In this document: in pieces, positions 35,601-55,280 of the stretch
Numbering within the stretch: the first letter of the stretch is position 1
Layout: every line of letters starts with the position of its first letter
NCBI RefSeq assembly: GCF_004138165.1
Contig: NZ_RYFF01000020.1
Location: forward strand, 33,982 to 93,567
Reading direction: 5' to 3'
DNA from: Candidatus Chloroploca sp. Khr17
GTDB lineage: Bacteria; Chloroflexota; Chloroflexia; Chloroflexales; Chloroflexaceae
Length of the DNA stretch: 59,586 nucleotides
Notes under the pieces: generated by a model
What the model saw: the letters and a program-made list of their open reading frames with translations, nothing else
What the model was told of the DNA's origin: nothing
Database searches by the model: none
Translations under genes and position numbers: made by a program

Positions 35601-36859
35601 CTATCGCCAATCGGCGATCATAATAGCGCTACCTCTGGAAGGAATGCCTCCTCCGCCAGCAACTCTTCGGCCATTGCCGTCGAGAACAGTAATAGTCACT
35701 TCTTGACCTACTTGCAAACCACATAAACGAGCATTCCCACCAGTATCAAAGCGACCACTTAGACCAATTCCATCCACCACGAAGTACCAACCTGCAGGAG
35801 TAATACCATTAATTTTAACCGAGATGCAACGAGGATCGTCATTGTAATTCACTACTCTGAACCGAAGCCTCTTAGCTTCAGGTTGAGGTGCTGGTACGGG
35901 TGTTGGTGGAGGTCTGAGACGATCTAAGGCTGCTTGCGCAACTGATGTATTTGAAATAGGGAGAGCGACAGCTTTGGCATAGATGCGTCGAGCATCACTA
36001 AGATTACCTTGCCGTTCGAGTTGTTCGCCATATGCAATGTATGCATCATAGAGCAGAGCATTGCTATCAAGAAAATTCGCTTGTATTGCAGCTAACTCCT
36101 CGAACTTAATTGCTGCATCACGCCATTGACGCTTCTTGTTCAATGCTACTCCATCAAGGTAGAGTACTAAGATTTGCTGCTGAGCAAGAGCCAACTGATG
36201 TGACGGATCAACGGCAAGCGCTGCATTGAATTTATCAAGTGCATCAACTGGCTGCTCTCCCCTAATGAGTTGAATTCCCCAATTGTAGTAGGTAGAACTC
36301 AACTTTTCGGTTACATCTAGATAGTTTCTGTCACTCTGGTAAATGGACTGAAAAGCATCGGCTGCATCACGCCATCGCTCTTTGGTGTAAGCATCGACTC
36401 CTTTCCTATAGTTTAGTGCGTTTACCGTTCGGGTATCTGGGGTTGGAGATCGTGCCGCGATAGAGGTTCTGGACGGAGAAGTTCTGGGTGTAGCTGAGGG
36501 CCTTTGTTGCTCTGGTCTAGAGGTCGGTTGAGTGCGCACCGGTGTAGCGGTATCAGCGCTGGCTACTACTACAGCAGCTGGCTCACGATTAGGCGACTGG
36601 CTAACCTCGGGAGGAGGTGTGCCATTACGCCCAATGATTACACCAATCAGCACCCCCACAATGAGCAAGACACCAACCCCGATTGCGATCACAATTGGTG
36701 GAAAAGTTCGTTGTGCTATGCCTCGTGTAGGCGGTGTTGACCGTTGAACCTGCTTTTCAGGAACATCAATCGGCCCCACCTCTTTCTGCTGGAGATACTG
36801 TTGATACTCTTCATCATTAGCATCGATCTCACCGTGTTTGTTAAATGTGGGCATAAACA
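35601..36859 (-). CDS. Island operon gene 14: single-pass membrane protein with TPR-like helical repeats and a C-terminal beta-rich domain.
   Basis: Start at ATG 36859/36853 ('MFMPTF'). TM 'FPPIVIAIGVGVLLIVGVLIGVIIG'. Repeats carry a W-x2-A-x3-[FL] signature ('WRDAADAFQSIY', 'WRDAAIKFEELA'). The layout matches the ectodomains of 47366-49150 and 50021-52735. Confidence 0.7.
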
Positions 36860-36931
36860 TCCTCGCCTGGCAAAAACGTGCGGTTAATTCCACCACAACT
36901 GACTACAGATAAGAATACATAAGCGTACAAA

Positions 36932-37735: not shown

Positions 37736-37748
37736 AGGCTTACTCCTA

Positions 37749-38390: not shown

Positions 38391-38410
38391 TTCACACCCC
38401 TATACATTCA

Positions 38411-38977
38411 TTACTTCTTACGCACAATCTTTGGTCTGCCCTGGAAACGTCCGAGCCGCCGCGCCTGTTCGATATGCTGTTCGTTGCGCTCTTGCATCTG
38501 TGCAGCTTCAAAATCGCGCAGGATCTCGTCGGGTTTCTGTAGTGGTTCGGCATGGGGCATAAACATGCTGCTGAGTGCTGCCAACCCCACGAGACCATCA
38601 ACTGTCTTCACCGCAGTGTAGGCTTTGGCCTGATTGAACTTGCCTTTGAACCAATTTAGTTTAGATATTTGATTCGGTGTGGGGGATTTTGGCTGATTCG
38701 AGCCACGAACAGTAGGGTGCTGCAGACCTCCTCGCACGTTGCGTGTTGGCAACGTACTGCTTGGCTTCGCCTTAACTTGTTTTAGTGGTGGCGTCCGAAC
38801 CTTTGATGTTGGGTGCTTCGCCAGTTTGCGTGTCGCTTGCTGCAACTTGACTGGTGTAACCCGCTGCCGGGCGGTTGTTGAAGCAACTGGTTGTAGAGCA
38901 CGTACTGGCGGCGTAGGCTTTGGGGTATTGGGGTTGCTCACACCTGCCCCACTTTTAGTACTCCGATTAACCTTCAT
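38411..38977 (-). CDS. Island operon gene 11: basic Pro/Thr/Lys/Arg-rich protein of unknown function.
   Basis: ATG 38977-38975 overlaps the TGA 38976-38974 of the upstream ATPase gene (ATGA coupling). The N-terminal ~110 aa are low-complexity and basic ('KPTPPVRALQ...KHPTSKVRTPPLKQVKAKP'). The C-terminus is helical ('DEILRDFEAAQMQERNEQHIEQARRLG'). Confidence 0.65.
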   Translation of the reverse strand: MKVNRSTKSGAGVSNPNTPKPTPPVRALQPVASTTARQRVTPVKLQQATRKLAKHPTSKVRTPPLKQVKAKPSSTLPTRNVRGGLQHPTVRGSNQPKSPTPNQISKLNWFKGKFNQAKAYTAVKTVDGLVGLAALSSMFMPHAEPLQKPDEILRDFEAAQMQERNEQHIEQARRLGRFQGRPKIVRKK

Positions 38978-41787
38978 GCGCCTGCTCCAATCAACATTTG
39001 CAGCACCTGGGCATCTACGGGTAAGCCCGAGTTGCGCATCCAATCAGCAGCCAAACGCAGGTAGACCCGTCGCACTTCGGCGTAGCGCGGGTGCGCACCA
39101 AATCGTGCCGTACAGATCTGCTCAATCTGGGTATGGTCCAGGGCACGATCTCCATAGCCCCCCAGAACATCTTCAATCGTTTCAGGCAAGCTATACCCAT
39201 CTTGTGCAAGCACCCACTTAGCTGCGGCATGGGGATCGTCCGGTAGGATGCTAACGGTCTGCACTTGGTTTGGCATCGGTGGCTGCCAGAGCGCCGCTGG
39301 CGGCATCTGCAACGGGCGGCGGGCCATCATCGCCTTCACGGCCTCATCGGAGTCATCAAAGATCGGGCGATCATCGGGCGTCTGAAAACGATCCAGGTAG
39401 TTGCCAACCTGCACGAAGATCGGGCGACTATCGGGGCCTCGTACAATCACTTGGCCCTGCCCGAGTGAGCGTACGTATTCGCGCTGACGCTCATTCAGGT
39501 TCATCACCTCACAGAAGAGCTTAAAGCTCTCCTGATCTTCGAGCCGATGCATGATTTTGAGGTTCGTATTGCCTAGCGCACCATTGACCAGTTGGGTTGG
39601 GATCTGCTCAGCGATCAAGATCCCTTCCCCAAACCCGCGCACCTCAGCCAAAATATTGGCGAAATCCTCTCCACCACGACTCCGTGCGTCAGCAAGATCT
39701 TCGCTACCCTTGTGTCCAGCCGACATAAGCCGATGGGCTTCTTCGATCAGAGTCATGTGCAGTTGTTTGCCGCGTTGTTCGGGTGGGAGGCGTTTGTAGC
39801 GGCTCTGCAATTCTTGGGTCAGTTGTACCAACAAAAAGGCCATAATCAGGGCGCTATCTTCGGGGGAGCCAACCCTTCCTAATTCCATGACGGTTGGCCG
39901 TGAGAGCACTACACTGAGCGGGGCTGGAGCCGTGGTATTGACAATTGTCCCTGCATTGAGCAGAAGATCACGCATGCGAATTTCGGCTGATTGGCGTACC
40001 CGGTCTTTGGCCTCCTCATCAAAGCCCGCCGTCATCAACTCGCTCACCGCAACGAGCGTCGTGTAGAACGCAGCCAAGGTGGGGGTGCCTACCCCCGGAT
40101 CGCCCCCCTTGCCCTGTTCGAGATTCCAACCTGCATCGGTATAGACCTGACGCAGGGCTGCGCGATAAATCGCTGGCAGAGGATCCCACATCGAGAAGGC
40201 GGCCATAAAACAGCGCATCAACAAACTGAGATGGGTCTTAAGCAAGATCCCCTCTGCCACGTAGAAGGGGTTGAAGCGGAAAGGCGTGGTGGTTTCATCA
40301 CCCAGCGTAAAAATTAGCAGATCGTCGGCCATTTGTGGGTCGGCCATGAGTAGCCGATAGTCCGGTTTGTCAATTGGGTACATCACCAGGAATGGTACCT
40401 GGTGGTCGGCCCAAAGTTGGGCCAGCATGTGCAGGCATGTGTTAGTTTTACCGCTTCCCGTAGCCCCTGCGATGAGACCGTGGCGGTTAAGGTCACGGAT
40501 CGGAATTTGCATATACTGGCCAGTACGCGTGCCACGATGGATGATCTCACCGAGGTTCAAACAGGGCACGTTGGTGAGCAGGCGATCGGTTGGCAAAACG
40601 AATGGCTCGTCGCGTACCTCAAGCCCGGGTAGATAACCACTCTCGGGGGGGATCGGCAGACGGAAGGCCCCCGCCGCTTGGTCGGTACTGACGAGATAGC
40701 GCAAGCGTACTGTCGCCTGATCAACGCGTGTTGGCCCCCAGGCTCCGTACTCAAGAAACGCAAAGTTATAACGTGCAATCGCCAGATCTTGATCATCCTT
40801 AGGGCTTTCGCTGGCCCATTGACGTGGCTCCGGCGTATTGTTTTGAATCAACTCGGAACCCAGCGCTTCCATTACATCATTAGGTGCATAATCCGATCCT
40901 ATCACTTGGATTTTTATGCGGAATAAATGATTTCTTTTGTTGATCAGAGGCATAAAGGTACGGGAAATATCATCAAAGCGTTCACGGCGATACAAATCAA
41001 ACCATGATTTGGACTCAACTTCTGCTGTGAGATTGCGATAACGTGAGAGCAGTAAGTTAATCTGGAGTAGCTCTTCGTGGAAGAGCACTGTTGGTCGCAA
41101 GCAGATGCTTGCGACACAGGTTTGCTCTTGTTGCACCAGCGTTTCTAAGAAGCGGCCAAAAGCAGAAGCATCAAAAACTGGACTAAAGGGATGTGGGAAG
41201 TAGCCAATGGCATCAGTACCTGCGTATGGATCAAAATCCTCAAACTTGCGAATCTCGACCAATTGGTTCATGCCTACCTGTTCAATGGGAATAGGTAACA
41301 TTGAACGCATGAAGTCGTCTTCGCCTAACGGCTCTAATGGGTAGTTGAAAGGATCTTCGAGAGGGTAGTGACTACGAAACTTGCACCAGAGCTGCCAGCA
41401 CAGATTTTTGGCGCGATTGCGGTTGGGATGGAAAGCCTTGCCAAGAAAGACAATCTCAATGGTTGGGCGATGTCCTGTCACTTGACTTGGTCGAGCAATA
41501 AACCGCAGATCGAAGGCGGCACTACCCTCGGCAATCATCCGAGCGTTGATCAAATCATTCAGGAAGCGGATTTGACGCAGCGTAATCAACCGAATACGAC
41601 TCAGTTCACCTCCACTGAGCGTACGCGTGAAATCGCTGGTTAAAAAACTAGGAATGAACGGCACCCGTGCTGCAAAGATAGCGTGCGCCCCCTGCTGGCG
41701 AGTGACTTGCACCCCACTACCCCCCCAACTCTCGGCATAGTGGAACTCATCGGGATTGCTGACGTAGATGAACGGCTCTTGCAACAT
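38974..41787 (-). CDS. Island operon gene 10: HerA/FtsK-superfamily (DUF87-like) P-loop ATPase with a ~430-aa N-terminal domain of unknown function.
   Basis: SD 'aggaagg' lies 8 nt before ATG 41787. Walker A 'GLIAGATGSGKTN' at 40444-40467. Walker B/sensor 'LHMTLIEEAHRL'. 'ILIAEQIPTQL...NTNLKIMHRL' is typical of HerA-like NTPases. Confidence 0.75.
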   Translation of the reverse strand: MLQEPFIYVSNPDEFHYAESWGGSGVQVTRQQGAHAIFAARVPFIPSFLTSDFTRTLSGGELSRIRLITLRQIRFLNDLINARMIAEGSAAFDLRFIARPSQVTGHRPTIEIVFLGKAFHPNRNRAKNLCWQLWCKFRSHYPLEDPFNYPLEPLGEDDFMRSMLPIPIEQVGMNQLVEIRKFEDFDPYAGTDAIGYFPHPFSPVFDASAFGRFLETLVQQEQTCVASICLRPTVLFHEELLQINLLLSRYRNLTAEVESKSWFDLYRRERFDDISRTFMPLINKRNHLFRIKIQVIGSDYAPNDVMEALGSELIQNNTPEPRQWASESPKDDQDLAIARYNFAFLEYGAWGPTRVDQATVRLRYLVSTDQAAGAFRLPIPPESGYLPGLEVRDEPFVLPTDRLLTNVPCLNLGEIIHRGTRTGQYMQIPIRDLNRHGLIAGATGSGKTNTCLHMLAQLWADHQVPFLVMYPIDKPDYRLLMADPQMADDLLIFTLGDETTTPFRFNPFYVAEGILLKTHLSLLMRCFMAAFSMWDPLPAIYRAALRQVYTDAGWNLEQGKGGDPGVGTPTLAAFYTTLVAVSELMTAGFDEEAKDRVRQSAEIRMRDLLLNAGTIVNTTAPAPLSVVLSRPTVMELGRVGSPEDSALIMAFLLVQLTQELQSRYKRLPPEQRGKQLHMTLIEEAHRLMSAGHKGSEDLADARSRGGEDFANILAEVRGFGEGILIAEQIPTQLVNGALGNTNLKIMHRLEDQESFKLFCEVMNLNERQREYVRSLGQGQVIVRGPDSRPIFVQVGNYLDRFQTPDDRPIFDDSDEAVKAMMARRPLQMPPAALWQPPMPNQVQTVSILPDDPHAAAKWVLAQDGYSLPETIEDVLGGYGDRALDHTQIEQICTARFGAHPRYAEVRRVYLRLAADWMRNSGLPVDAQVLQMLIGAGA

Positions 41788-41806
41788 ACGGGTGCCTTCC
41801 TGATCA

Positions 41807-43195
41807 CTAAGCGTAAGCGGTCATAACGGCTTCGACCAGCACAAGTAGATCGCACTGGGGCGTCCAGTTAGCGAGCGGTTCAGGCATGAAGCGCTGCTCT
41901 TGTCCATCGAACTCTACAAACATAGTTGGAGCCTCTTGGGGATACCGAGCCGTACAACTAAAATAGATGCCGAGGGTGTGCCCAAGCTGATCACGCAGGC
42001 TGACACTGACCAGGAAGACGTTCGCATCTTCGTGTAGGGCGGCGTTTAGTCCCTGTGCTAGCATTGCGCCTATCTCGTTGCGCAGGCGTTCGCCAGCACC
42101 TGCGCCGCTGAAGCGTGCGACGGGTGACGGTAAAGCGGGAACAGTCACACCATACATCCCTCCGAGAGTAGCTGTAGGTGGGGCTACGGCCTGTCCGGTG
42201 AGCGCCCCAAGCAACACCTGTTGAAGGTCATTGCTACCTGCCGCCGATGTCCCCATCGGCAGCATCCCCGCCTTCGCCATCTCGGTCAGGGCCAGTAAGC
42301 GTTGTCCATCTGTTTGCGCTTTATCACCAAAGACACGCGTGTACATGTCTGGATTGGTCAGCAAGAGATATTGCGGTGTCAATTCAATCATGCGCGAGAT
42401 ATTCATCTGTGTGAGCGCCTGTGCCATCGCAATCTCGGCCTGCGAGTTCGCCTGGATCTTCGCGACCTCGGCATCAGTTTGCGCCTCGCGGGTACGCATA
42501 TAAACGTCACGTAATTTCTTGTCCAGTTCTTCAGCACCCGCAATACGCGTGATCTGGACGTTCGAGACTCGTATTCCCAAGTTGTCTTCAATGCCGCGTT
42601 GCTGCAATTGCTGTGCAACCATGTAACCTGCATGACCGCCCGCCTGGAAATCCTGGTATTTAGCAATTGATGCAGTGATCGAACGAATTGATTCCATCAC
42701 CGTATCATAGAGCCTCGTGAGCGGCTGTTCGACGACAAGCGCAACGTGTTCAGGATGAATTATCTGATAACTGACTGCAACATCGAGATCAACTGGCAAT
42801 GCAATCTTCTCACCCTGGGGCGGCTGATAGAAAATCGTAAACTCCTTCGTCGTTGTTATATCCAGCGTGCGCTCACGCGTATTGACCACGTAGAGATCAA
42901 TGCGATTCATCACGGGAAACGAGAGCGCGTGATAACTCCCTTCTTGCAGCACTTCGAGCACTCTGCCATCCCCGGTCACAACGACGGTAGTGCCAGCCAT
43001 AACCCGAAAGATACGAAAGATACTGGTGAAGACATTGTTATGAACACGTACTGGACCAAAGACAAGGGGTGAATTACTTAGATCAGCAAACGGTTCACGC
43101 AGGAAGTCATCAAGCGAGCCCTGTCTGCTCGCTGCTTCCTTATCGTTAACGTGACGACGGTTTAGGGGCATGGTCTGGTCACGGTTAGTTCCCAT
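41807..43195 (-). CDS. Island operon gene 9: SPFH/Band-7 (flotillin/prohibitin-like) domain fused to a C-terminal UEV/RWD-like (non-catalytic E2-fold) domain.
   Basis: ATG 43195 follows 'ggaaggag'. The SPFH-like core runs from 'VVVTGDGRVLEVLQEGSYHA...' through 'VDLDVAVSYQIIHPEHVALVV' and 'GIRVSNVQITRI' to a coiled-coil 'AQTDAEVAKIQANSQAEIAMAQA'. C-terminus 'LGIYFSCTARYPQEAPTMFVEF...NWTPQCDLLVLVEAV'. Confidence 0.7.
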   Translation of the reverse strand: MGTNRDQTMPLNRRHVNDKEAASRQGSLDDFLREPFADLSNSPLVFGPVRVHNNVFTSIFRIFRVMAGTTVVVTGDGRVLEVLQEGSYHALSFPVMNRIDLYVVNTRERTLDITTTKEFTIFYQPPQGEKIALPVDLDVAVSYQIIHPEHVALVVEQPLTRLYDTVMESIRSITASIAKYQDFQAGGHAGYMVAQQLQQRGIEDNLGIRVSNVQITRIAGAEELDKKLRDVYMRTREAQTDAEVAKIQANSQAEIAMAQALTQMNISRMIELTPQYLLLTNPDMYTRVFGDKAQTDGQRLLALTEMAKAGMLPMGTSAAGSNDLQQVLLGALTGQAVAPPTATLGGMYGVTVPALPSPVARFSGAGAGERLRNEIGAMLAQGLNAALHEDANVFLVSVSLRDQLGHTLGIYFSCTARYPQEAPTMFVEFDGQEQRFMPEPLANWTPQCDLLVLVEAVMTAYA

Positions 43196-43229
43196 ACGAG
43201 CCAACTCCTTCCTGAGGCGCACAAGGTTG

Positions 43230-44453
43230 TTAGGTTTGATTGGGTAATATGCTAAGCTGAATGACCGGAAGATCAGCCAAGATGTCCGAAGCTTCGGCGG
43301 CTGCTTCTTGTTCACTCATCTTGAGGCTTTCGGCTACGAAAGCTGAATAGTTGCACACCGGACATTGAGCATTCTTCGGCACATCAATGAAGAGGCTCTC
43401 TAACGGCTGTTGAAAGATCCACTCCGCACGATTACCGAAGAGGAGCCAGTTCGTCGGCAGATCCGGTAGCGTGTTCTGCTTATCGCGCAGAAGCGTTAGT
43501 AACGCCATACGCGCCATTAACAGCGCAATCATACCCACATCAACCCCTAGACCTGGCTGAGCCAGTAATTCTTCCATACGTGCGGGATCTTCGTAACCCA
43601 GCGAGAAATCCTGTGTAGCGGCAGGGGGAGGGCCAAAAAAATCGGCAATGACGGTCTGAAAACAGGCGTAGCAAGCACCCTCGGAGGGAATTGCACGGAA
43701 GATATCACCCCCAAAGGCGCGATTGTAGGCTGCGGCATAGATAGCCGGGATCCCTCTTGGCCAGCACACGGTATTGACCGCCAACTTTGAGTCTTCATGA
43801 TCAGTAGCGACCACAACCAGATCACACCCGGTAACAATGGTAGCTAGTTGATCCTCATGGCCTAACACGTTCAACTCGTAGGTCTCGACGGTAATTGCGG
43901 GCGAGATGTCGTAGAGCAGATCGCGCAGGGCACGGGTCTTATAGCGCCCGATATCGTGGAGGCCACACGCATGACGTGCAATATTGTGAACTTTGAGCCG
44001 ATCAAAATCCACCAACCGCATCTGCCCTACTCCGCAACGAGCAAGCTGGCTCGCCACCACTGAACCACCTGAGCCGAGGCCAATCACGGCAATGCACGTA
44101 TTGGCGAGGCTGCTCACTTCAAAGATGCCGTGCATACGTGAGGCATAGTCAGTATGCAAACGGATGACGTTGCAGGAAATCGTTTCCCATCCAGTAGCCT
44201 TGCTTTGCCAACCAGCAACCTGATCTGGCAACTCATCGTCAATGTTGAGGACTATTTCTTCCGGGGCCAGTTCTGTTGTTGGCGGTACAGGGCTGCGATA
44301 CCAGCGACCTAGGTACGCACCGGACGCCTCAAGGATTCCCCTGATTTGCACGACATCGCCATCGTCATAACGGTAGCCGTAGAGCTTGCCCTCTGTCTGT
44401 GCAGCAGTACCAAGCAACTGGTTAATCAAGCTATCAGGAACGGTAAGAAACAT
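43230..44453 (-). CDS. Island operon gene 8: ThiF/MoeB/E1-like adenylyltransferase with an N-terminal degenerate JAB-like segment.
   Basis: SD 'ggag' lies between the upstream TAG and ATG 44453. Rossmann motif 'IAVIGLGSGGS' at 44061-44081. 'RLVDFDRLKVHNIARH' is the E1 Arg-finger/Asp region. 'GACYACF'. The N-terminal 115 aa align by eye to the two JAB proteins, but with HKH replaced by YRS. Confidence 0.8.
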   Translation of the reverse strand: MFLTVPDSLINQLLGTAAQTEGKLYGYRYDDGDVVQIRGILEASGAYLGRWYRSPVPPTTELAPEEIVLNIDDELPDQVAGWQSKATGWETISCNVIRLHTDYASRMHGIFEVSSLANTCIAVIGLGSGGSVVASQLARCGVGQMRLVDFDRLKVHNIARHACGLHDIGRYKTRALRDLLYDISPAITVETYELNVLGHEDQLATIVTGCDLVVVATDHEDSKLAVNTVCWPRGIPAIYAAAYNRAFGGDIFRAIPSEGACYACFQTVIADFFGPPPAATQDFSLGYEDPARMEELLAQPGLGVDVGMIALLMARMALLTLLRDKQNTLPDLPTNWLLFGNRAEWIFQQPLESLFIDVPKNAQCPVCNYSAFVAESLKMSEQEAAAEASDILADLPVIQLSILPNQT

Positions 44454-44464
44454 CGGCAGACTCC

Positions 44465-45865
44465 CTATTGCAGTGGCTTCCCTTGATCTGGTTGAACCGA
44501 TGTTGGAAATACATAGCTGCGGTTGAACTCAGCGCAGAGGTCAGCCGCACTACGACAGGCCAGTTCAACTTGACGTACGATCAGACGACCTTGAAATTCG
44601 AGCAACTCACCAATGCGCTGGGATGGACGTGGTTGGGTCAAGGTTTCAAGCACATTGCGCACTACATCACGTAGGCGTATATGGGTACGCCAACCACCAG
44701 GAAAGAGTTGTTCAGTCACAATACGTACTACGTTATCATCACTCAACACGACTTGGACTTCAGGCGCTTGCTGCGGAAACTGTGAACCAGGATCAAGCTT
44801 AATAGCTTTGATCTGTAGCGGCTCTGTTTGCGCAACTGGCGCGACATTTACCATCCCCTCCGGCGTTTGCTGGGGTGCTGGGATTATCTCAGGGATATTC
44901 AGGGTCATTAGGGGCGGATGCGTAAAGGTAATCGTATACCAAACTCCGTTATCATCGCGCGTATGTACCTCCAGATGCGCCCCAGATCGCAAGGTCTGGC
45001 AGTACTGTTCCAGATCCTGTTGTTCGCGTGCAAAGCGGCCAGGAAGGGGAGGGATTGGCGGAATGCTTGCATCAGGTGGTGAACCTGAGAAAGGTGGTAT
45101 TTCAGGCGGCACGAAATCAGTCGCTGAACGACGAGTGTAAGAGGAACTTTCTAGATCGATGACCTCCAGGGTATCAGGAGGTTCCACATCTAGTGTGTAA
45201 GGTGAGGTATGTGGCTGCACCGGAGGATGGGAATGCAGATTGGCCCGGGCAGCACGGAGATCGGCCGGGTTGACTCCCCAGCGATCAGCAGTTCCTGATG
45301 TTGCGTGAGGAGGTTTTGGCGCAACTGTCTGTTGTTCTAGCGCAACCAGACCATCCAACAAGACGCGAAGGTCGCCTTCGACAAGCTCACATGGCACAGG
45401 CGTCGCACTCATCGTCTCACGGGGATAGTAGTGCCCATGGAGCAGAAATGTACCATCTTCAATGGTTACAAGTGGGGTGAAGATACCGTGGGGCAAATGA
45501 TAGGACTCATCGCTCAAGATATCGACCACCTGAAGCGTATCACCCGAACTTGGCCGATGCAAACCTGGCGGATGCTTATGCCACTCACCAACATAATCAA
45601 CGTGGTAGGTGGCGTAGTGCTGACGCCACGTTTCCAGGTCGCGTTGGCGAGCAAGTGCATCTGGAGCATAGGTATGCGCCCGTCGGTCGGCATTGCTACC
45701 AGGACCAGAGGCTGCCACAACGACGAGGTGGAGTCCATCGGGGAGTTGGAACATACGTCCAACCAGGATGCCGCCGGTCTCACGTCCAGGGCTCGTACAT
45801 GCCTCGTCGTACATCCGCTGATAGACATCTTGTTGGGCCAGATAGACGGTATTTGGTACTGGCAT
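44465..45865 (-). CDS. Island operon gene 7: JAB/MPN+ (JAMM) metallopeptidase fused to a C-terminal UEV/RWD-like domain.
   Basis: ATG 45865 lies one nt after the E2 stop codon (TAA 45869-45867). 'ETGGILVG'. An intact JAMM motif 'HKHPPGLHRPSSGD' (H-x-H-x7-S-x2-D) at 45539-45580. C-terminus 'IKAIKLDPGSQFPQQAPEVQVVL...GGWRTHIRLRDVVRNVL'. Confidence 0.85.
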   Translation of the reverse strand: MPVPNTVYLAQQDVYQRMYDEACTSPGRETGGILVGRMFQLPDGLHLVVVAASGPGSNADRRAHTYAPDALARQRDLETWRQHYATYHVDYVGEWHKHPPGLHRPSSGDTLQVVDILSDESYHLPHGIFTPLVTIEDGTFLLHGHYYPRETMSATPVPCELVEGDLRVLLDGLVALEQQTVAPKPPHATSGTADRWGVNPADLRAARANLHSHPPVQPHTSPYTLDVEPPDTLEVIDLESSSYTRRSATDFVPPEIPPFSGSPPDASIPPIPPLPGRFAREQQDLEQYCQTLRSGAHLEVHTRDDNGVWYTITFTHPPLMTLNIPEIIPAPQQTPEGMVNVAPVAQTEPLQIKAIKLDPGSQFPQQAPEVQVVLSDDNVVRIVTEQLFPGGWRTHIRLRDVVRNVLETLTQPRPSQRIGELLEFQGRLIVRQVELACRSAADLCAEFNRSYVFPTSVQPDQGKPLQ

Positions 45866-45866
45866 G

Positions 45867-46322
45867 TTAGTCTGCCTCAATTCCAGGCCAATAGGTTTTC
45901 CCTGACTCAAGCCAGGTTTCGTAGGCAAAGAACCAAGCGGCGGCTACCGCGATCACGGTTGCTGCCGTGGTTTGCTGGGCAAACGAACGATCACCAGGGT
46001 AGTAGAGGCATAGGTGTCCATCGTTATACTGGTGCTTGAGGCGGCCTGCTTGCTCGTCCTTCCAGACGGTAATCGCTGGGTTAATGGGATAAACTTTAGG
46101 CGGATCATCGGGAAAGTTGTCAGGATAGTAGAGTGCAATCTCATAGCGCCTTTCGCGATTACTCTCTAAGGTGCCGATCCAGACCAACTGGTTACTATCA
46201 CGCACGAGCTGAAACTGGGGAAAGCGCGTTTCCATAGCTCTCTTTTCCAGTACGAGTCGTGCGGGATTAAGGTCATACCACGCTGCATACCAGCGCATCG
46301 GACGGAGAATAGTTTGGCCCAT
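45867..46322 (-). CDS. Island operon gene 6: E2/UBC-like ubiquitin-conjugating-type enzyme with a candidate catalytic Cys.
   Basis: 'YEIALYYPDNFPDDPPKVYPINP' is the E2 flap motif (46098-46115). 'KHQYNDGHLCLYYPG' has the Cys codon at 46008-46010 (H..N..G.lC, as in E2 HPN...C). A C-terminal helix 'TVIAVAAAWFFAY' follows. Confidence 0.8.
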   Translation of the reverse strand: MGQTILRPMRWYAAWYDLNPARLVLEKRAMETRFPQFQLVRDSNQLVWIGTLESNRERRYEIALYYPDNFPDDPPKVYPINPAITVWKDEQAGRLKHQYNDGHLCLYYPGDRSFAQQTTAATVIAVAAAWFFAYETWLESGKTYWPGIEAD

Positions 46323-46387
46323 CGTAACTACCCTTATTCGTTGCTGCTTAACAGTGCTTTAGATGTCTATGTCCACAAGTGGATCGT

Positions 46388-46588
46388 TTATGCTCGTGTA
46401 AATAGGGCAAACCAGCGCTGCGGTTTAAGCACTGTCTTGCTCTGTGGATCGGTCTGCGCGACCTTGGGATCTTCTGGGACGTGCATCTTGCCATCCGGAC
46501 TGACGACAACTTCCTGTGCGGTGGCAAGACGCTTCTTAAGTTCTTCCAGGCTGGATTGTGGGCTACGAGGGGGTTGTGGCGTGCTCAT
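46388..46588 (-). CDS. Island operon gene 5: 66-aa hypothetical protein, probably disordered, occupying the position where a Ubl gene would be expected.
   Basis: ATG 46588 is preceded by a strong SD ('caggaggtacaccaccATG'). Sequence: MSTPQPPRSPQSSLEELKKRLATAQEVVVSPDGKMHVPEDPKVAQTDPQSKTVLKPQRWFALFTRA. There is no C-terminal Gly and no obvious beta-grasp pattern. Confidence 0.55.
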   Translation of the reverse strand: MSTPQPPRSPQSSLEELKKRLATAQEVVVSPDGKMHVPEDPKVAQTDPQSKTVLKPQRWFALFTRA

Positions 46589-46640
46589 GGTGGTGTACCT
46601 CCTGGGATTTGCTGACACGACTGGTATACGTACAAGGGAA

Positions 46641-47357: not shown

Positions 47358-47365
47358 GACGCCTC

Positions 47366-49150: not shown

Positions 49151-49207
49151 AGCAACTACTCTCTTGTAAGCGACGCGAATGCCCAGCGTTGACGAGCCTT
49201 ACGAAAC

Positions 49208-50017
49208 TCAGATCCGGCCATAGAGATCAGTAACAATCGTTGCCAGACGACACGAACCGTCCCAGGGGAAGAAGATTCCGGAACCAATATTGAGCGAGGT
49301 GCCATGGCGCTCGACAACCACGGAAGGTGGTTGCTGAGGGTAAGTTGGCTCACACACCATATAGATCGTCGTCCCATCCTGTGGTCGGGTAACGGTTACG
49401 CAGCACGTGCCGTCTTGGAGGGTATTGATCTGGACGGTGCCAAATTGGGCCAGTGCTATGCGCTCACCAGCGATACGCTCGGCGAGATCCAAACTAGGAC
49501 GAGGTGTGGCTCCCCCTACCGTCTGGTGCGGGCTAGGTGGTGGATCAGGTGGTAGTAATGGCCCCGAACTACGTAGCCCAGCAGTAGGGGAGGCGTTCGT
49601 TCTAGCTATGAGTCCGCTCGTCCGGAGATTGCCGTCCGACCTAGAGGCTATAGTAGGCCCGCGGCCCATTGAACTGCCAAGCACGAGGCCAAGCAGTAGG
49701 CCGGGAGCTGTCCCAAGCAGCATTGCCACACTGTACATACGCAAACTCCCAAGGGCTAGTCCTAGATTATCGCTCAGCAGCATATTTAGGACACCACAAA
49801 GCAGCACAAAGACGAGCGCACTAGCTGCGGGGCCAACGAAGATCGCCCAGTGGTAACCTTGTGCGACACGCCCGCGTAAGAGTAGACCTCCACCCAGGCC
49901 CCCGATGATCAGCCCGATCATTGCCAGAGCTAGAACCACCAGCGGGTTCGTGCTGATCAATAGGCCCATGCCCAGGAAGAAGAGACAACTGACGATGATA
50001 ACCATTGCTGCAAGCAT
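49208..50017 (-). CDS. Island operon gene 2: 4-TM Gly-zipper membrane domain, Pro-rich linker and UEV/RWD-like domain.
   Basis: ATG 50017 lies 3 nt after the upstream TAA, with GGAGGA inside the last codons of the upstream gene. TM segments include 'GLIIGGLGGGLLL'. 'TTIYMVCEPTYPQQPPSVVVER...PWDGSCRLATIVTDLY'. Confidence 0.75.
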   Translation of the reverse strand: MLAAMVIIVSCLFFLGMGLLISTNPLVVLALAMIGLIIGGLGGGLLLRGRVAQGYHWAIFVGPAASALVFVLLCGVLNMLLSDNLGLALGSLRMYSVAMLLGTAPGLLLGLVLGSSMGRGPTIASRSDGNLRTSGLIARTNASPTAGLRSSGPLLPPDPPPSPHQTVGGATPRPSLDLAERIAGERIALAQFGTVQINTLQDGTCCVTVTRPQDGTTIYMVCEPTYPQQPPSVVVERHGTSLNIGSGIFFPWDGSCRLATIVTDLYGRI

Positions 50018-50020
50018 GGG

Positions 50021-52735
50021 TTATTCCTCCAGGCTAACAGTAATTTTGTAGTATTTCGATTTCTCGAAGCTAAACTCAATTGCTGTTGATCGAATTTTTG
50101 TTTCACCACCTACTGATTCCACTGTCAGTCTATTGCGGCCATCAATATTCATAAACTTAAAGCTTACACGAATTTCAGAATCTCCTCCTCTTAAAATTGC
50201 ATCACTAGGCCCTACGAGAAGTACATTAACATTTGGAGGCGGCGTTCCACCATTGGCTTCGGTCATCTCATTCTCTGAAATTTCACTAATTGCGATTCTA
50301 TATAGGGGCCATGTAGCTTCCTCAGCCGTTTGGGTTTGGGTTTGGGCTTGCGCCAGAGCCTCCGCTTGTGCGGTAGCAGCAACAGCAGAGGCTGTGGCTT
50401 CAGCATTAGCGGTGGCACTAGCAGCAGCAGCAGCAGCAGCAGTAGCGCTGGCCTGGGCCACAGCCGTGGTCGTTTGCGCCTGTGCGGTTGCGGCGGGGTT
50501 AGGTGTGGGGCGGGGTGTAGAGACATCAGCAGCCAAGGCACGATTAGCACTTTCCTTTAGCTTGGCAACTGTCTCTGCTGTCTCTGCTGTCTCTGCTGAG
50601 CTCGGCCTGACGGCTTCACTACCAAAGTCGTCGAGTTGCTCCAGCAAGCTTAATGCGTCTAAGACCGCACGCCAATCAGTACGATTGAGCGCCTCTTCAA
50701 CTTCAGACCATAACTCATCGGCCTGCGTCTGGGTAGTATTGGCATCATCAATGGACTGATCTAATGCATCATCACCACGCTCATTCGTACGCAAAAAATC
50801 TGCATTTACCCTGGCTTCATTGATCTGAGCCTGTGCATCGTCAAGCTTCCCATCCCGCCAGAGAGCACGGGCATATTTTAGGCGGGTCTCAGACTGGATT
50901 TTAGCCACGTCTGATATGCGTGGATCACCTCCTTGAAATGCAACAGGATCCGGTAAAAGGCCAGTAGTTGCTACAATTTCGTCAAGGATCCTCACCGCCT
51001 GTTGCCAATTACCATCGTCTACTGCTTTATCGTAGCTGGCCCACTCGGCCTCTAACCGCTGCACGTCACCAAGAGCATCAACAGCTTGACGGATCTCAGT
51101 ACGTAGTGCGCTGAGTTCCTCCTGTAAGGAGCGCGAGATTTGGCTGTCATTGCCTTCCGGCCAATTAGTAGATAACAGCGTTCGTGCCTCTACCAGTTTC
51201 TGTGCTTCCACGTTTTCAGTATCAATCTTTGTACGCACCTCGGCCATGAGCACTTTCACGAACCAATCGTTAGCTCGTTGCTTCGCTTCGTCATCCATAC
51301 TCAAAGCAGCACGCTGAGCCTGCTTCGCTACCTCGCGTGCGAGGTCGAACTCAGGTGGCTCAGCAGCAAGATAATCGTTGATTAACAGTAGGCGCGCATC
51401 ATGGATCAATTGCGTGATGTCGCGTCCTCGTGGGTCCGTAGTTTCACCTTCTTTAAGTCGTTCCTGTAACTTAGCAATGCGCTCTGAAAGCGAGAGGTTA
51501 GGATTATCTATTTCGATCCACATAGCGATGGCGGTCTGGGTTTGGGTAGCCTGAAGAGCAGCAGTCGCCGTTGCGTCGCTCGCTGTCTGATCCAGAGTTA
51601 AAGTTGCGCTAGGTGTCTGTTCGATCCCAGTCAATGGTTCCTGGCCCTGTGGTTGACCAACCTGCTCACCACTGGACCAGATCTGCCAACCGACAAAGCC
51701 AAATAAACCAAGCGCTACGAGTGATAAGGCCGCAACGAGAACAACAAAGCCTCCATTCTGGCGTTTCCTTGCCGCAGTTCTCGATGGCGGCGAAACCGGG
51801 CTAGGCGTTGATGGATGCACGACAGGAGCAATGGGCAGTGCAGCGGCGACGGGCATCGCACGAAGAACGCCCTCGACTACATCAACCAAGTGTGAATTGC
51901 CGTTATGATAGGTCCACTGGTTAATCACACCATCATCGTTCTGTGGCAACGCAGTGCCAGCCCGTTCAATGGCTACCAGGGCCGGTGGTACTCGTGGGAA
52001 GTCATTCGGGGCCATCAGATAGATCGTGAGATCAGGATGCTGGTTCGTGCGGACTTCAAAGAAGAAATTCGTATCTTGGCTCTTCAGCGTCACCTGATAG
52101 CCCCGCTCACGAAGCAAACGATGCTCTTCGCCAATACGATCATTGATCGGTGGGCTGCTTGCACCATCAGCTCGCTCGCGCTGGATCAGAGGATGCTCAT
52201 CATCAATTTCATGCACACGTGAAGCCTGAATTTCTACAAAAGGCTCACGCCGTTGCGCCATTTGGCGACTCATGTAGTAGTAACGGATGGTAAACTCACC
52301 GCGATCAACCCAGACAATCGGGTTAATGATCTCATTGATTTTATAGGCCGGATCGCGAAAGACGGCATGGGCAGTGGCGACATCACCCGCACTAAATGTC
52401 TGGTAACGTGCAGGATGTTTATGCCATGTGCCGATATAATCTGTTTTCGGGTAGCGGGCGTGATATTCTTGTAACTTACCGTTAACATAGTCAATGTCGG
52501 GATTAAATTCCACCGGATGGTGATACGCATTTTCACCCGGCCCAGTGGCTGCAATGATCAATAGCTGAACGATCTCTTCCCCATCAAGACGTCGTCCAAC
52601 CAGGATGCCCCCAGTCTCATTTTCCAAACTCGTTGTACTACCTCGCCGGGCTTCCTCTTCAATCAGGCGGCGGGCTGAACGCGTGATATAAATCTTACCA
52701 GGGAGCGGTGACTTCTGGGTACTGAGCTGTGACAT
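50021..52735 (-). CDS. Island operon gene 1: JAB/MPN+ metallopeptidase, UEV/RWD-like domain, TM, ~550-aa helical-repeat region and a C-terminal beta domain.
   Basis: SD 'ggagga' lies 5 nt before ATG 52735. 'ETGGILVG'. Intact JAMM 'HKHPARYQTFSAGD' at 52382-52423. 'LTIYLMAPNDFPRVPPALVAIE' with FPRVPP at 51983-52000. TM 'GGFVVLVAALSLVALGLFGFVGW'. Helical repeats ('NWQQAVRILDEIV', 'DWRAVLDALSLLEQL'), an Ala/Thr/Gln low-complexity stretch, and a beta-rich C-terminus. Confidence 0.8.
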   Translation of the reverse strand: MSQLSTQKSPLPGKIYITRSARRLIEEEARRGSTTSLENETGGILVGRRLDGEEIVQLLIIAATGPGENAYHHPVEFNPDIDYVNGKLQEYHARYPKTDYIGTWHKHPARYQTFSAGDVATAHAVFRDPAYKINEIINPIVWVDRGEFTIRYYYMSRQMAQRREPFVEIQASRVHEIDDEHPLIQRERADGASSPPINDRIGEEHRLLRERGYQVTLKSQDTNFFFEVRTNQHPDLTIYLMAPNDFPRVPPALVAIERAGTALPQNDDGVINQWTYHNGNSHLVDVVEGVLRAMPVAAALPIAPVVHPSTPSPVSPPSRTAARKRQNGGFVVLVAALSLVALGLFGFVGWQIWSSGEQVGQPQGQEPLTGIEQTPSATLTLDQTASDATATAALQATQTQTAIAMWIEIDNPNLSLSERIAKLQERLKEGETTDPRGRDITQLIHDARLLLINDYLAAEPPEFDLAREVAKQAQRAALSMDDEAKQRANDWFVKVLMAEVRTKIDTENVEAQKLVEARTLLSTNWPEGNDSQISRSLQEELSALRTEIRQAVDALGDVQRLEAEWASYDKAVDDGNWQQAVRILDEIVATTGLLPDPVAFQGGDPRISDVAKIQSETRLKYARALWRDGKLDDAQAQINEARVNADFLRTNERGDDALDQSIDDANTTQTQADELWSEVEEALNRTDWRAVLDALSLLEQLDDFGSEAVRPSSAETAETAETVAKLKESANRALAADVSTPRPTPNPAATAQAQTTTAVAQASATAAAAAAASATANAEATASAVAATAQAEALAQAQTQTQTAEEATWPLYRIAISEISENEMTEANGGTPPPNVNVLLVGPSDAILRGGDSEIRVSFKFMNIDGRNRLTVESVGGETKIRSTAIEFSFEKSKYYKITVSLEE

Positions 52736-52900
52736 GCATCCTCCGAGACGACATGGGGTGCGAACGTTAGGACATCACTTTCTGATGAACATAATCTTGA
52801 TTCTTGAATAAGGTTCAGCGTCTTAATCTTGGTGAGCGATCTCTCTCTATAATCTTAGTAACAATCTTTGGAGGTTTGCGCTTGTGTTTTTTGCTCTGGT
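52736..52900 (-). promoter_or_regulatory. AT-rich leader/promoter zone of the island operon (exact elements not resolved).
   Basis: It lies immediately upstream of the first gene and is noticeably AT-rich ('cataatcttgattcttgaataagg', 'tctctctataatcttagtaacaatc'). No convincing -35/-10 pair at canonical spacing was found. Confidence 0.25.
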
Positions 52901-53189
52901 TGATCAAGGTGGTCAGGCTTGAACGCAGGGAAGCAGCGCACGCGGGCATGGTGACCGTGGTCGCTCGGTGAACGAACGAGATTCTTCAGTTCTTGGTTCG
53001 CATATGTACCGCAATTGCAGCTTCGGGCCGTGAACCGCGCGGCTTGTGGGCAGCGAAGGCTACCTGCGTGGCCTGATCCAGCCGACGAAGGTCGGCTTTG
53101 CCATGCGTCGCCGCCGCGTTGACGCCGACGGTCTGGGCGGATGGGTGCGTTCTGCCGGTTGGGGAATTTGCGCGCCTGGCTTTAGTGTC

Positions 53190-53201
53190 GTATCATGATA
53201 C
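53190..53201 (+). promoter_or_regulatory. 12-bp perfect palindrome abutting the hicA start codon (candidate HicB operator).
   Basis: 'gtatcatgatac' at 53190-53201, with the ATG at 53203. Confidence 0.3.
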
Positions 53202-53202
53202 T

Positions 53203-53469
53203 ATGGAGCTAAGCAGTCGCCACCGCAAGATGCTACGGGCCGTTTTTGCTGATCCCGTTCGCGCTGACGTGAAGTGGGCGGACGTTGAGACGCTGCTGCA
53301 TGCGCTTGGTGTCGACATTGGCGAAGGAAGAGGGTTACGCGTCCGGATCCAACTCAACGGTGTGCGCGCCGTCTTTCATCGACCGCATCCTATCCCGGAT
53401 ACCGACAAAGGTGCGCTTAGGTCATTACGACGGTTCCTAATAGAAGCAGGTGTGAAGCCGGAGGAATGA
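53203..53469 (+). CDS. hicA: Type II toxin-antitoxin system toxin, HicA family.
   Basis: 88 aa from ATG 53203. 'HRKMLRAVFADPVRADVKWADVETLLHALG...FHRPHP' matches the HicA-family pattern as I remember it. It lies directly upstream of the hicB-like gene. Confidence 0.75.
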   Translation: MELSSRHRKMLRAVFADPVRADVKWADVETLLHALGVDIGEGRGLRVRIQLNGVRAVFHRPHPIPDTDKGALRSLRRFLIEAGVKPEE

Positions 53470-53472
53470 GCC

Positions 53473-53793
53473 ATGCTGCAGTATAAGGGCTATACGGGTC
53501 GCGTTGAGCTTGATGATGAGGCTGGCATTTTCCATGGAGAGGTGCTCGACCTCCGTGATGTGGTCACCTTCCAGGGAAGGAGTGTGGACGAGTTAGTCCA
53601 AGCCTTTCGTGACTCGATCGATGACTATCTCGACTTCTGCAAAGAACGTGGCGAGGAACCGGATAAGCCTTTCACGGGACGGTTGATGCTTCGCCTGCCG
53701 CCTGAATTGCATCGGAAGGCCTATGTTCGGGCGCAGCGTGAGGGCAAGAGTTTGAACCAGTGGATTAGTGATAAGCTGGCGGAGGTCAGCTAA
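53473..53793 (+). CDS. hicB: Type II toxin-antitoxin system antitoxin, HicB family (with a C-terminal RHH-like DNA-binding tail).
   Basis: SD GGAGGA sits within the hicA 3' end. 'MLQYKGYTGRVELDDEAGIFHGEV...FQGRSVDELVQAFRDSIDDYLDFCKERGEEP' and 'GRLMLRLPPELHRKAYVRAQREGKSLNQWI'. Confidence 0.85.
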   Translation: MLQYKGYTGRVELDDEAGIFHGEVLDLRDVVTFQGRSVDELVQAFRDSIDDYLDFCKERGEEPDKPFTGRLMLRLPPELHRKAYVRAQREGKSLNQWISDKLAEVS

Positions 53794-53920
53794 CCCTGCT
53801 TGAAAGCTGAGTGCGAAACGGTTCTCGGCTGCGCAAACACGTATAATGCAGTGCTAGGGGACTTGTTTGGGGGCCGCGCCCAAGCGACAATCACAAATCT
53901 GCAATCTACAATCCCCCTGC

Positions 53921-53964
53921 CCCTATTCGCTTATTCGTGAGGGTTCTTCGTGGTCGGCGGTGCT
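53921..53964. repeat. Solo arm of the 'ttcgtggtcggcgg' inverted-repeat element.
   Basis: 'ccctattcgcttattcgtgagggttcttcgtggtcggcggtgct' is nearly the reverse complement of 30193-30230. Confidence 0.75.
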
Positions 53965-54152
53965 CCCAGAAAACTTTTGTTACGCACTACTACCTTGTCC
54001 CGCCTAAGCATAGTGTCTAATTCTTAACGGAATCTGCCCCTCTGCTGATGCGTTTCTGCTGTATACTTGCAGGGTAGAAAAGCACGTCTTGCCCTGCCCT
54101 TCGGCAGGGTGCTTCTCACTTCTGGCTCCGGTGTTGAGCGTCGCTTCCCAGT

Positions 54153-54956: not shown

Positions 54957-54984
54957 GCCCAATGCGCTGTAACAAAGATGTTTT

Positions 54985-55061
54985 TTTGACGCAAAGGCGC
55001 GAAGGCTTGATGTATCTCCAGTTAAGAGCTCACAGGTCTGCCAGACCTGTGAGCTCTTAAC
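54985..55061. repeat. 'tttgacgcaaaggcgcgaagg' module followed by a 20-bp perfect palindrome. Both are related to modules of the 30092-30319 composite repeat.
   Basis: 'gttaagagctcacaggtctg c cagacctgtgagctcttaac' (55021-55061) shares its core 'cacaggtct...agacctgtg' with 30092-30124. 54985-55005 is the reverse complement of the 'ccttcgcgcctttgcgtcaaa' module. Confidence 0.8.
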
Positions 55062-55280
55062 GCTATGCCTTGCAAACCCGTCTTCGGATCTGTTTTTCTG
55101 TGCTGATTGATTCATATTACTTTGTGACCCTGAATTTCTCATGTTACTCTACGTTCAGGTTTGCAAGCGCTTTTCTGAATAAATTGTTACAAAGAAGGTA
55201 GCGAAGTAGGGTTAGTTGATGCAGCGCATGACATGTGCTATGCTACTCTACCGTTTGAGAAATGAAGATAGAGTGATCCT

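Follow-up and report, generated by a model that had tools for sequence, protein, structure and literature searches.

A putative tagging operon headed by a membrane-anchored JAB protein

Candidatus Chloroploca sp. Khr17, a filamentous phototroph of the Chloroflexi, encodes a 904-amino-acid (aa) protein that combines a JAB/JAMM peptidase domain, an inactive E2-fold domain of the RWD/UEV type (RWD-like domain), a predicted transmembrane (TM) helix and a region of 550 aa predicted to lie outside the cell. The gene for this protein, called the target hereafter, is located in a stretch of 59,586 nucleotides of contig NZ_RYFF01000020.1 (the window). It is the first gene of a tightly packed minus-strand operon that runs from position 52735 down to approximately 35601 and also codes for an E1, an E2, a second JAB protein and a small protein of about 60 aa ending in ...RWF. 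On balance, we consider it probable that the 904-aa protein is a membrane-anchored processing or deconjugating JAB peptidase, similar to Cap3 of the cyclic-oligonucleotide-based antiphage signalling systems (CBASS), which serves an E1-E2-JAB tagging system devoid of a cyclase and is docked to it via the RWD-like domain. An earlier note on this DNA had suggested the removal or maturation of a tag at the membrane. That suggestion gains support from the operon itself, with its CBASS-type E1 and E2, its second JAB and its conserved ...RWF protein.

The reading frame and the coordinates of the 904-aa open reading frame given in that note were verified, and an NCBI protein of the same organism is 100% identical to it, although annotated only as 'Mov34/MPN/PAD-1 family protein'. 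The family is rare. A search of 5.8 billion clustered proteins identified 16 homologs with E <= 1e-3, so far mainly from Chloroflexi and from one cyanobacterial metagenome-assembled genome (MAG). The statements on conservation of the target made below refer to an alignment of 16 orthologs. Plasmid collections contained distant JAB matches only (29-33% identity) and phage collections contained none, so that nothing points to transport by known mobile elements. The positions of all features are listed in Table 1.

The JAB domain

The JAB domain is the best-conserved part of the target, with a mean pairwise identity of 55% among the orthologs. It matches Pfam PF14464 Prok-JAB over residues 33-124 (30 bits for a cut-off of 25), a match found in all 16 orthologs as well, and it scores up to 62.5 bits against the CBASS-type JAB models of PADLOC. 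The ETGGILVG and H-x-H-x7-S-x2-D motifs are located exactly where they had been reported (52382-52423 for the latter), and their catalytic residues are invariant: E40, T41, G42 and G43 are unchanged across the 16 orthologs, as are H105, H107, S115 and D118. The JAMM site is therefore intact, and the domain is probably an active metallopeptidase. The earlier designation as an 'active' peptidase holds for the integrity of the site, and the activity itself is what these motifs would predict. The NCBIfam Cap3 equivalog model NF050170 was not reached by the target (18 bits for a cut-off of 200), whose kinship with Cap3 is thus one of family only. When PDB sequences were searched with the single JAB-region sequence, one spurious match only was obtained, and a profile of 16 sequences was needed.

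A catalytically inactive E2-fold domain

The segment that follows the JAB domain had been described as E2-variant-like (residues ~200-295), and this description is borne out by a confident AlphaFold2 model computed from the RWD-like alignment (predicted local distance difference test score, pLDDT, 91.8; predicted template modelling score, pTM, 0.83). The predicted order of a helix, three strands, a flap, two strands and two helices corresponds to the UBC-type alpha/beta fold. The flap is of the YPxxPP type (F/Y-P247-x3-P251), and alignment with four similar domains encoded by nearby genes revealed an invariant Pro in the [YF]-P-x3-P flap as well as a conserved Glu and a conserved Trp. Residues 192-296 of the target contain no Cys, and the domain can therefore not be a catalytic E2 but is an inactive E2 variant.

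Compared to PDB sequences, the RWD-like profile found E2, FANCL, BRE, UEV2 and IMPACT among its best matches, all of them below threshold (E between 0.1 and 1.4). An exhaustive search of 1.84 billion representatives retrieved 180 proteins only (E < 1e-3), which form a small separate clade. Among the retrieved proteins, Pfam recognises RWD in seven (best 3e-13), UQ_con in two (best 1e-8) and UEV in one. The target itself has no direct Pfam RWD match, and six of 19 members of the RWD-like family do have one, the best at 1.2e-4. The commonest architecture among 150 listed representatives is JAB-RWD-like-TM(-tail), with 46 proteins, followed by an N-terminal extension joined to the RWD-like domain (~27), mostly of the SPFH type as judged by analogy with the window protein and from 20 Band_7 matches. 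TM(n)-RWD-like, RWD-like-TM-ectodomain and soluble JAB-RWD-like proteins were also listed, and one member of the family carries a YukD domain, as found in type VII secretion.

The operon contains six inactive E2-fold domains. A six-frame scan of the window with the RWD-like profile recovered the five domains used to build the profile; beyond these, its only matches were the genuine E2 and the C-terminal part of the soluble JAB. The UEV-like N-terminus previously noticed in the 47366-49150 protein is supported by a profile score of 65 bits. For the soluble protein at 44465-45865, the same note had claimed a JAB and UEV-like pairing; its JAB part is clear (102 bits against the JAB profile of the membrane family), whereas its RWD-like part is marginal (E = 0.004 in the six-frame translation of the window).

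One RWD-like domain is found on every accessory protein and none on the E1, the E2 or the small protein, and in eukaryotes E2-fold domains bind E2s and ubiquitin-like tags (Mms2, Tsg101). Such a distribution would also be expected if the RWD-like proteins were themselves substrates or decoys tagged by the E2, with the JAB reversing its own modification in cis or in trans as part of an autoregulatory loop. However, no conserved Lys stands out in the RWD-like alignment, the invariant positions of which are P, E, P and W, and we regard such a loop as highly improbable.

Membrane topology

The single TM segment placed by the earlier note at ~51679-51751 was confirmed as a hydrophobic segment at ~51680-51751, and an equivalent segment is present in all 16 orthologs despite a sequence identity of 17% in this part. 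The Kyte-Doolittle value over 19 residues is between 2.1 and 3.4 in 15 of the 16 orthologs and 1.65 in the remaining one (P0010). In the 15-residue flanks of the segment, the target has four Lys or Arg residues on the N-terminal side and none on the C-terminal side, and the sums over the 16 orthologs are 45 and 11, respectively. The N-terminus of the target consists directly of the JAB domain, is colinear with the orthologs from residue 1 and contains no second hydrophobic segment. In three related loci, no TM segment was predicted for the E1 and the E2. Taken together, the charge bias, the lack of a second hydrophobic segment and the lack of TM segments in E1 and E2 predict that the N-terminus is inside and the C-terminus outside. 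The target would thus be a single-pass protein without signal peptide, which matches the earlier proposal of a JAB and an E2-like domain on one side of the membrane and a 550-aa region on the other.

If the hydrophobic segment were not a true TM helix, the whole protein would be cytoplasmic. This is hardly credible in view of the Kyte-Doolittle values maintained in 15 of the 16 orthologs at such low identity and of the consistent charge bias. In addition, the linkers that follow the segment are rich in Pro, Thr, Ala and Gln, and beta-sandwich folds such as the one described below are typical for surface proteins.

The outer region

Beyond the TM helix, the target has a Gln/Thr/Ala-rich stretch followed by ~330 residues of acidic, helix-type sequence. 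The ortholog profile of this part matches the TPR domain of P58IPK/DNAJC3 with E = 3.4e-4, and the TPRs of OGT and kinesin light chain are just below threshold. Pfam detects no TPR in the target and gives sub-threshold matches in three of the 16 orthologs, with TPR_21 at 4.4e-4 in one ortholog. The earlier note had described a long helical region with W-x2-[AV]-[VIL]-x2-L repeats. The helical character is upheld, and the region is TPR-like, whereas the motif occurs just twice, at residues 577 and 688. At the position of the low-complexity linker, the orthologs have Pro/Thr-rich sequences of variable length. The last ~100 aa, noted before as a beta-rich terminus, are predicted to form a beta-sandwich (pLDDT 81), which is replaced by a PKD domain in one ortholog (P0012). 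A search of the 5.8-billion-protein database with the profile of the outer region gave no matches and missed even the query family, probably because low-complexity words of the linker filled the candidate list.

The same ectodomain grammar had been claimed for the proteins encoded at 47366-49150 and 35601-36896. Comparison by hhalign of the helical part of the target with the TPR-bearing ectodomains of these two proteins gave a probability of 68-75% (E ~1e-5), and that of the two ectodomains with each other a probability of 94%. The beta domain of the target showed no significant hhalign similarity to those of the two proteins, and pairwise BLAST among the three window ectodomains was at or below significance. 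Because of these marginal BLAST results, we describe the three ectodomains as sharing an architecture and a distant, profile-level similarity rather than as paralogous; the common architecture is thus upheld, and the idea of close copies is not.

With a domain outside, an enzyme inside and a single TM helix between them, the target has a receptor-like layout, and the earlier note had seen in the outer region an external sensor that controls the peptidase. According to this proposal, an external ligand or a perturbation of the envelope would act on the TPR/beta-sandwich region and switch the cytoplasmic JAB through its oligomeric state or conformation. It receives slight support from the swapping of outside modules (PKD in P0012, CarboxypepD_reg in a partner protein) and from one related operon (L020), which encodes a TM protein whose periplasmic part is a solute-binding domain. 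In two genomes, the system is accompanied by a linked sigma/anti-sigma-like pair. However, the outer region evolves faster than the JAB domain (26-30% versus 55% pairwise identity), the single-pass helix offers no obvious route for signal transmission, and neither a sensing fold nor a transducing element was found. The structure prediction for the C-terminal part gave a generic beta-sandwich, and no specific ligand-binding fold was recognised. As localisation or anchoring accounts for the data equally well, and as none of the analyses supported sensory control, we consider a transmembrane sensor unlikely.

Conservation of the operon

Syntenic loci were found in Oscillochloris trichoides DG6, Candidatus Ribeiella danica, Chloroflexales bacterium ZM16-3, one Anaerolineales MAG and four distinct metagenomic operons, one of which (L001/L002) spans two contigs. 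Nine other loci, mostly of Chloroflexi, extend past the target. All of them share four genes in the order membrane JAB (a JAB-RWD-like-TM protein), small RWF protein, E2 and E1, between which additional membrane proteins are usually encoded. Eight of the nine loci also code for one or more other proteins of the RWD-like-domain or TM-TPR-beta kind, and such proteins usually come after the E1. The soluble JAB is absent from L004, L008 and L022, where the membrane JAB is the sole JAB. Since the membrane JAB occurs in every extending locus and the soluble JAB does not, the target family is the core JAB peptidase of the system and not an accessory copy. The gene for the HerA ATPase was found only in the window and in L007 (58% identity), not in L004, L008, L021 and L022, and both L004 and L021 lack the SPFH gene. 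As loci without HerA or SPFH retain the membrane JAB, these two are accessory parts.

These two genes are relevant to another explanation, in which the target would be a subunit of a trans-envelope machine for translocation or for septal or envelope assembly, together with the HerA/FtsK pump, the SPFH protein and the TM-TPR proteins. The E1-E2-JAB set would then regulate assembly only, and the JAB would mainly mature components of the machine. The combination of a HerA/FtsK ATPase, an SPFH protein and four to five membrane proteins, each with a large TPR region on the outside, fits such a machine, as do the YukD domain of one RWD-like family member and the distribution of the family, mainly in Chloroflexi with one cyanobacterial MAG. 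The dispensability of HerA and SPFH in related loci makes it less likely, and neither a secretion substrate nor a channel protein was recognised. We therefore judge both the machine and the merely regulatory role of the E1-E2-JAB set to be quite unlikely.

The small RW[FA] protein as a candidate tag

The small protein and the E2 are the best-conserved products of the operon. The small protein is 74-87% identical in the four related loci that were scored and 66% identical in a fifth (P0160), and its length varies between 59 and 72 aa in the window and the related loci. The 66-aa protein of the window has no match in Pfam, PADLOC or NCBIfam, and its C-terminus is RWF with or without a tail instead of Gly-Gly. 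All 16 collected small proteins have the C-terminal end KP[QT]RW[FA] (RPQRWF in L021), followed by nothing or by AR, VR, AF, VG, SA, AKH, APC, ALFTRA or SPARHP. A fixed end with zero to six variable tail residues is the pattern of a modifier that is trimmed before activation. The ~60-aa ...RWF protein is thus a candidate modifier that apparently lacks a beta-grasp fold, or alternatively a candidate substrate of the JAB.

Two of the 16 sequences, homologs of 45 aa that end in KPTRWA, come from two Halorubrum genomes, where they are located directly upstream of a cluster of E2, standalone JAB and, further along, E1. RWD-like membrane proteins were not found in these two loci. As judged from this gene neighbourhood, the small protein belongs to a wider, soluble E2/JAB/E1 system, to which the RWD-like membrane proteins may be a bacterial addition.

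The motif at the end of the small protein recurs, as [KRQ]-P-x-R-W-[FYH], in most of the E2s, 2-4 residues before the start of the conserved WY[ED]xNPARL core (46270-46322 in the window, minus strand). It is present at the same position in L001, L003, L007, L009, L010, L020 and L021, and the E2s of L004, L008 and L022 start at the core. This shared motif may be a second JAB cleavage site, a docking peptide or the relic of a tag-E2 fusion.

Proposed mechanism and comparison with known systems

In the mechanism that we propose, the ThiF-type E1 would activate the ~60-aa ...RWF protein by adenylating its C-terminus and then transfer it to the CBASS-type E2. The membrane JAB, and likewise the second JAB where there is one, would cut exactly after ...RW[FA], thereby trimming the precursor tail of zero to six residues, freeing the tag from its targets in the manner of Cap3 with cGAS, or both. 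The RWD-like domain, common to the soluble JAB, the SPFH protein and several membrane proteins, would be a docking module for the E2, the tag or other RWD-like domains and would gather all its carriers into one membrane-associated complex. The outer TPR/beta-sandwich region would place or anchor the peptidase in the cell envelope. The physiological role, which is the weakest step of the model, is most likely in conflict and defence or associated with the envelope.

Several points weigh against this mechanism. The proposed mature end of the small protein is aromatic and not Gly or Ala, and P-x-R-W-[FYH] also occurs internally, near the N-terminus of most operon E2s, which fits a docking motif equally well. 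The small protein may be a regulator or an adaptor instead of a modifier. The docking role of the RWD-like domain is suggested by analogy with Ubc13-Mms2, BRCC36-BRE and RWD dimers. Moreover, no effector was recognised among the operon proteins, and the model gives the HerA ATPase and the SPFH protein no function of their own.

The closest known relatives are Cap2 and Cap3 of type II CBASS, as the operon JAB, E2 and E1 score best against CBASS models (62.5, 84.5 and 139 bits, respectively). Cap2 adenylates the disordered C-terminus of cGAS, which is not ubiquitin-like, and Cap3 cleaves exactly after the last residue of cGAS in linear fusions (bioRxiv 10.1101/2022.03.31.486616). The Cap enzymes thus act on a disordered, non-ubiquitin C-terminus, and by analogy the ...RWF protein might be handled in the same way. 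In contrast to CBASS, the operon has neither a CD-NTase nor a recognised nucleotide-activated effector, its E1 and E2 are encoded by separate genes, and the candidate substrate is a dedicated protein of ~60 aa. Unlike Cap3, the target carries, in addition to its JAB, an E2-fold domain of the inactive type, a TM helix and 550 aa that are predicted to lie outside. Searches with Pfam, PADLOC and NCBIfam found no CD-NTase or cyclase and no known effector among the operon proteins, and none was found in the related loci. An assignment to CBASS was rejected, as there is no cyclase and the Cap3 equivalog threshold is not attained (18 bits compared to 200).

The Bil and Bub (6E) systems consist of beta-grasp ubiquitin-like proteins and soluble enzymes, whereas the operon is membrane-associated and encodes six inactive E2-fold domains. 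No beta-grasp ubiquitin-like protein was detected in the operon with Pfam, PADLOC or NCBIfam, and the operon is therefore not a Bil or Bub system. The BRISC and BRCA1-A complexes (BRCC36 with BRE/BRCC45) also pair a JAMM with a UEV, but the likeness is one of logic only, as BRISC is eukaryotic, soluble and composed of multiple subunits with the two functions on different chains, whereas in the target they are fused and membrane-anchored. To our knowledge, the pairing of JAMM and UEV is otherwise known from eukaryotic BRISC.

Ubc13-Mms2/Uev1a and the RWD adaptors (GCN2, RWDD3 and kinetochore RWD dimers) have the same fold, without catalytic Cys and with a YPxxxP-type flap. Mms2/Uev1a and the RWD adaptors exert their function through binding, either to an active E2, to a tag or to a second RWD domain. 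The family described here differs from them in being below threshold against PDB (E >= 0.1), bacterial and fused to JAB, SPFH or TM segments. Finally, Pup is a modifier of ~60 aa without beta-grasp fold and as such analogous to the role proposed for the small protein. However, Pup is ligated by the glutamine-synthetase-like PafA and not by E1 and E2, and it has no sequence similarity to the ...RWF protein.

Other genes of the operon and its surroundings

Table 1. Features of the target, of its operon and of the related small-protein genes. Positions are those of the window unless a related locus (L number) is named.
Feature	Position	Strand	Evidence or remark
Target gene, 904-aa JAB / RWD-like / TM / TPR-like / beta-sandwich protein	50021..52735	-	ATG to stop
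JAB/JAMM (MPN+) metallopeptidase domain, residues ~12-165	52241..52702	-	Pfam and PADLOC profiles
ETGGILVG motif with predicted catalytic Glu E40, residues 40-47	52595..52618	-	Translation
H105-x-H107-x7-S115-x2-D118 zinc-binding JAMM motif	52382..52423	-	Translation
Catalytically inactive E2-fold (RWD/UEV-like) domain, residues ~195-295	51851..52153	-	Model and profiles
Predicted single TM helix, residues 330-348, preceded by RTAARKRQ	51692..51748	-	Kyte-Doolittle 2.75 over 19 residues
TPR-like helical region, predicted outside, residues ~406-735	50531..51520	-	Ortholog profile, hhalign
Ala/Thr/Gln-rich low-complexity linker, residues ~736-805	50321..50530	-	A 30, T 13, Q 8 of 70
Predicted C-terminal beta-sandwich domain, residues ~806-904, ending in conserved G-x-YY-x-[IV]-T-V	50024..50320	-	Model
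Multi-pass membrane protein, C-terminal RWD-like domain	49208..50017	-	RWD-like profile 81 bits; syntenic in L001, L003
RWD-like / TM / TPR / beta-domain protein, 594 aa	47366..49150	-	Weak Pfam RWD, TPR; RWD-like profile 65 bits
N-terminal TM and cytoplasmic RWD-like domain, 238 aa	46641..47357	-	TM prediction, RWD-like profile, synteny
66-aa protein ending KPQRWF-ALFTRA, candidate modifier or JAB substrate	46388..46588	-	Conservation
Active-type CBASS E2, Cys in HLCLYYP	45867..46322	-	PADLOC E2 model 84.5 bits
Soluble JAB paralogue, divergent C-terminal RWD-like domain	44465..45865	-	Pfam Prok-JAB 34 bits
ThiF-type E1	43230..44453	-	Pfam ThiF 121 bits; PADLOC Cap2 (E1-E2) models 139 bits
SPFH/Band-7 protein, C-terminal RWD-like domain	41807..43315	-	Pfam Band_7 34.6 bits; RWD-like profile 75 bits
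HerA/FtsK-type P-loop ATPase, 937 aa, accessory	38974..41787	-	Pfam HerA_C; PADLOC mad8 66 bits
Three non-conserved genes, 210, 213 and 280 aa	36932..39043	-	Between HerA and last TM-TPR gene
TM / TPR / beta-domain protein closing the operon	35601..36896	-	Pfam TPR_2 30 bits, cut-off 27
Small protein	L001 17890-18078		Related locus
Small protein	L003 18509-18697		Related locus
Small protein	L004 14341-14529		Related locus
Small protein	L007 4924-5103		Related locus
Small protein	L008 12466-12660		Related locus
Small protein	L020 5841-6023		Related locus
Small protein	L021 5213-5395		Related locus
Small protein	L022 3921-4139		Related locus
45-aa small-protein homolog ending KPTRWA	L009 9289-9426		Halorubrum genome
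45-aa small-protein homolog ending KPTRWA	L010 8560-8718		Halorubrum genome

Orthologs of the operon E2 carry the Pfam domain PF26395 (E2-CBASS). The E1 has an N-terminal extension of ~100 residues (MFLTVPDSL...GKLYGYRYDDGDVVQIRGIL...), which is conserved in all related loci and, by eye, appears similar to the initial strands of a JAB/MPN domain that lacks catalytic residues. The 47366-49150 protein is syntenic in L001, L003 and L004. Orthologs of the protein that closes the operon also end it in L004 and L008, and the counterpart in L021 has a CarboxypepD_reg domain. In L020, the gene following the membrane JAB (4450-5799) encodes a protein in which a short N-terminus in the cytoplasm and a single TM helix precede a periplasmic SBP_bac_8/11 domain that takes the place of the TPR ectodomain. 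This SBP_bac_8/11 domain is the sole recognisable ligand-binding module across all versions of the system that were seen.

The three genes between HerA and the last TM-TPR gene have the lowest G+C content of the window (0.48). The middle one is Lys-rich and shows weak, sub-threshold similarity (E = 0.0015) to a restriction-endonuclease-like domain of CDI toxins. They may be an inserted cassette of the toxin/immunity type. They were rejected as part of the conserved system, as no counterpart was found in any related locus.

The operon is flanked by the phosphoenolpyruvate carboxylase gene on one side and by a HicAB module and a sigma/anti-sigma-like pair on the other. The G+C content falls from ~0.60 over the first 34 kb, which contain housekeeping genes such as those for 2-oxoglutarate dehydrogenase and phosphoenolpyruvate carboxylase, to 0.48-0.57 over positions 36001-56000, which include the operon and its upstream neighbours. 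This drop is consistent with an acquired island. The HicA/HicB toxin-antitoxin pair (53098-53793, plus strand; HicA 30.5 bits, HicB 76.6 bits) is located just upstream of the operon in divergent orientation. It is followed by genes for a sigma-70/extracytoplasmic-function-like factor and for a soluble protein that is rich in Cys (CxxC) and similar to zinc anti-sigma factors; the two genes adjoin the system at 54153-54956 and 55281-56084 (plus strand). Counterparts of this pair are present in the metagenomic locus L001 at 8712-9446 and 7892-8632 (30% identity; E = 1e-29 and 1e-40). The other flanking genes differ between the window and L001, the pair being common to both, and it may regulate the operon. 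Just upstream of the system in L001 (1376-7819), there are two CHAT-protease proteins, one of 953 aa with weak TPR matches and one of 651 aa with CHAT only. CHAT-protease proteins of this type are characteristic of the conflict systems of multicellular bacteria.

Significance

Recent work has established that bacterial E1-E2-JAB systems such as CBASS Cap2/Cap3, Bil and Bub are functional relatives of ubiquitination. Those described in the searchable literature are soluble and tag a cyclase or a beta-grasp protein. No description of the present architecture or operon was found in Iyer et al. 2006 (PMC1779556), in Kaur et al. 2020 (PMC7159879) or in the other searchable literature, the 2008 survey of the E2 fold being outside this scope. 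The operon therefore apparently represents an undescribed ubiquitin-like tagging operon, which is best documented in Chloroflexi. Compared to that literature, three features are new: the membrane-anchored fusion of a JAB with an inactive E2-fold domain and a large outside region; a group of membrane and scaffold proteins with the inactive E2-fold domain in common, which suggests a modular docking code; and a conserved candidate modifier of ~60 aa with an aromatic C-terminal motif, which is also found beside haloarchaeal E2-JAB-E1 clusters.

The most far-reaching possibility is that the target is a transmembrane receptor-peptidase, in which envelope events such as phage attack, damage or contact with neighbours gate the maturation or the removal, inside the cell, of a ...RW[FA] tag without ubiquitin fold. 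We think this quite unlikely, and we are just as doubtful that such tagging is carried out by a CBASS-type E1/E2 pair in a set of Chloroflexi, where proteins with the common E2-fold docking domain would organise it at the membrane, and that it extends to one or more cyanobacteria and, as a soluble and simpler version, to haloarchaea. If true, it would constitute a new kind of transmembrane signalling by reversible protein tagging. The membrane-anchored, Cap3-like peptidase that we favour has implications of its own. Should the small ...RWF protein indeed be a tag, it would widen the range of E1/E2 conjugates and provide a tractable five-gene system for the study of membrane-organised tagging.

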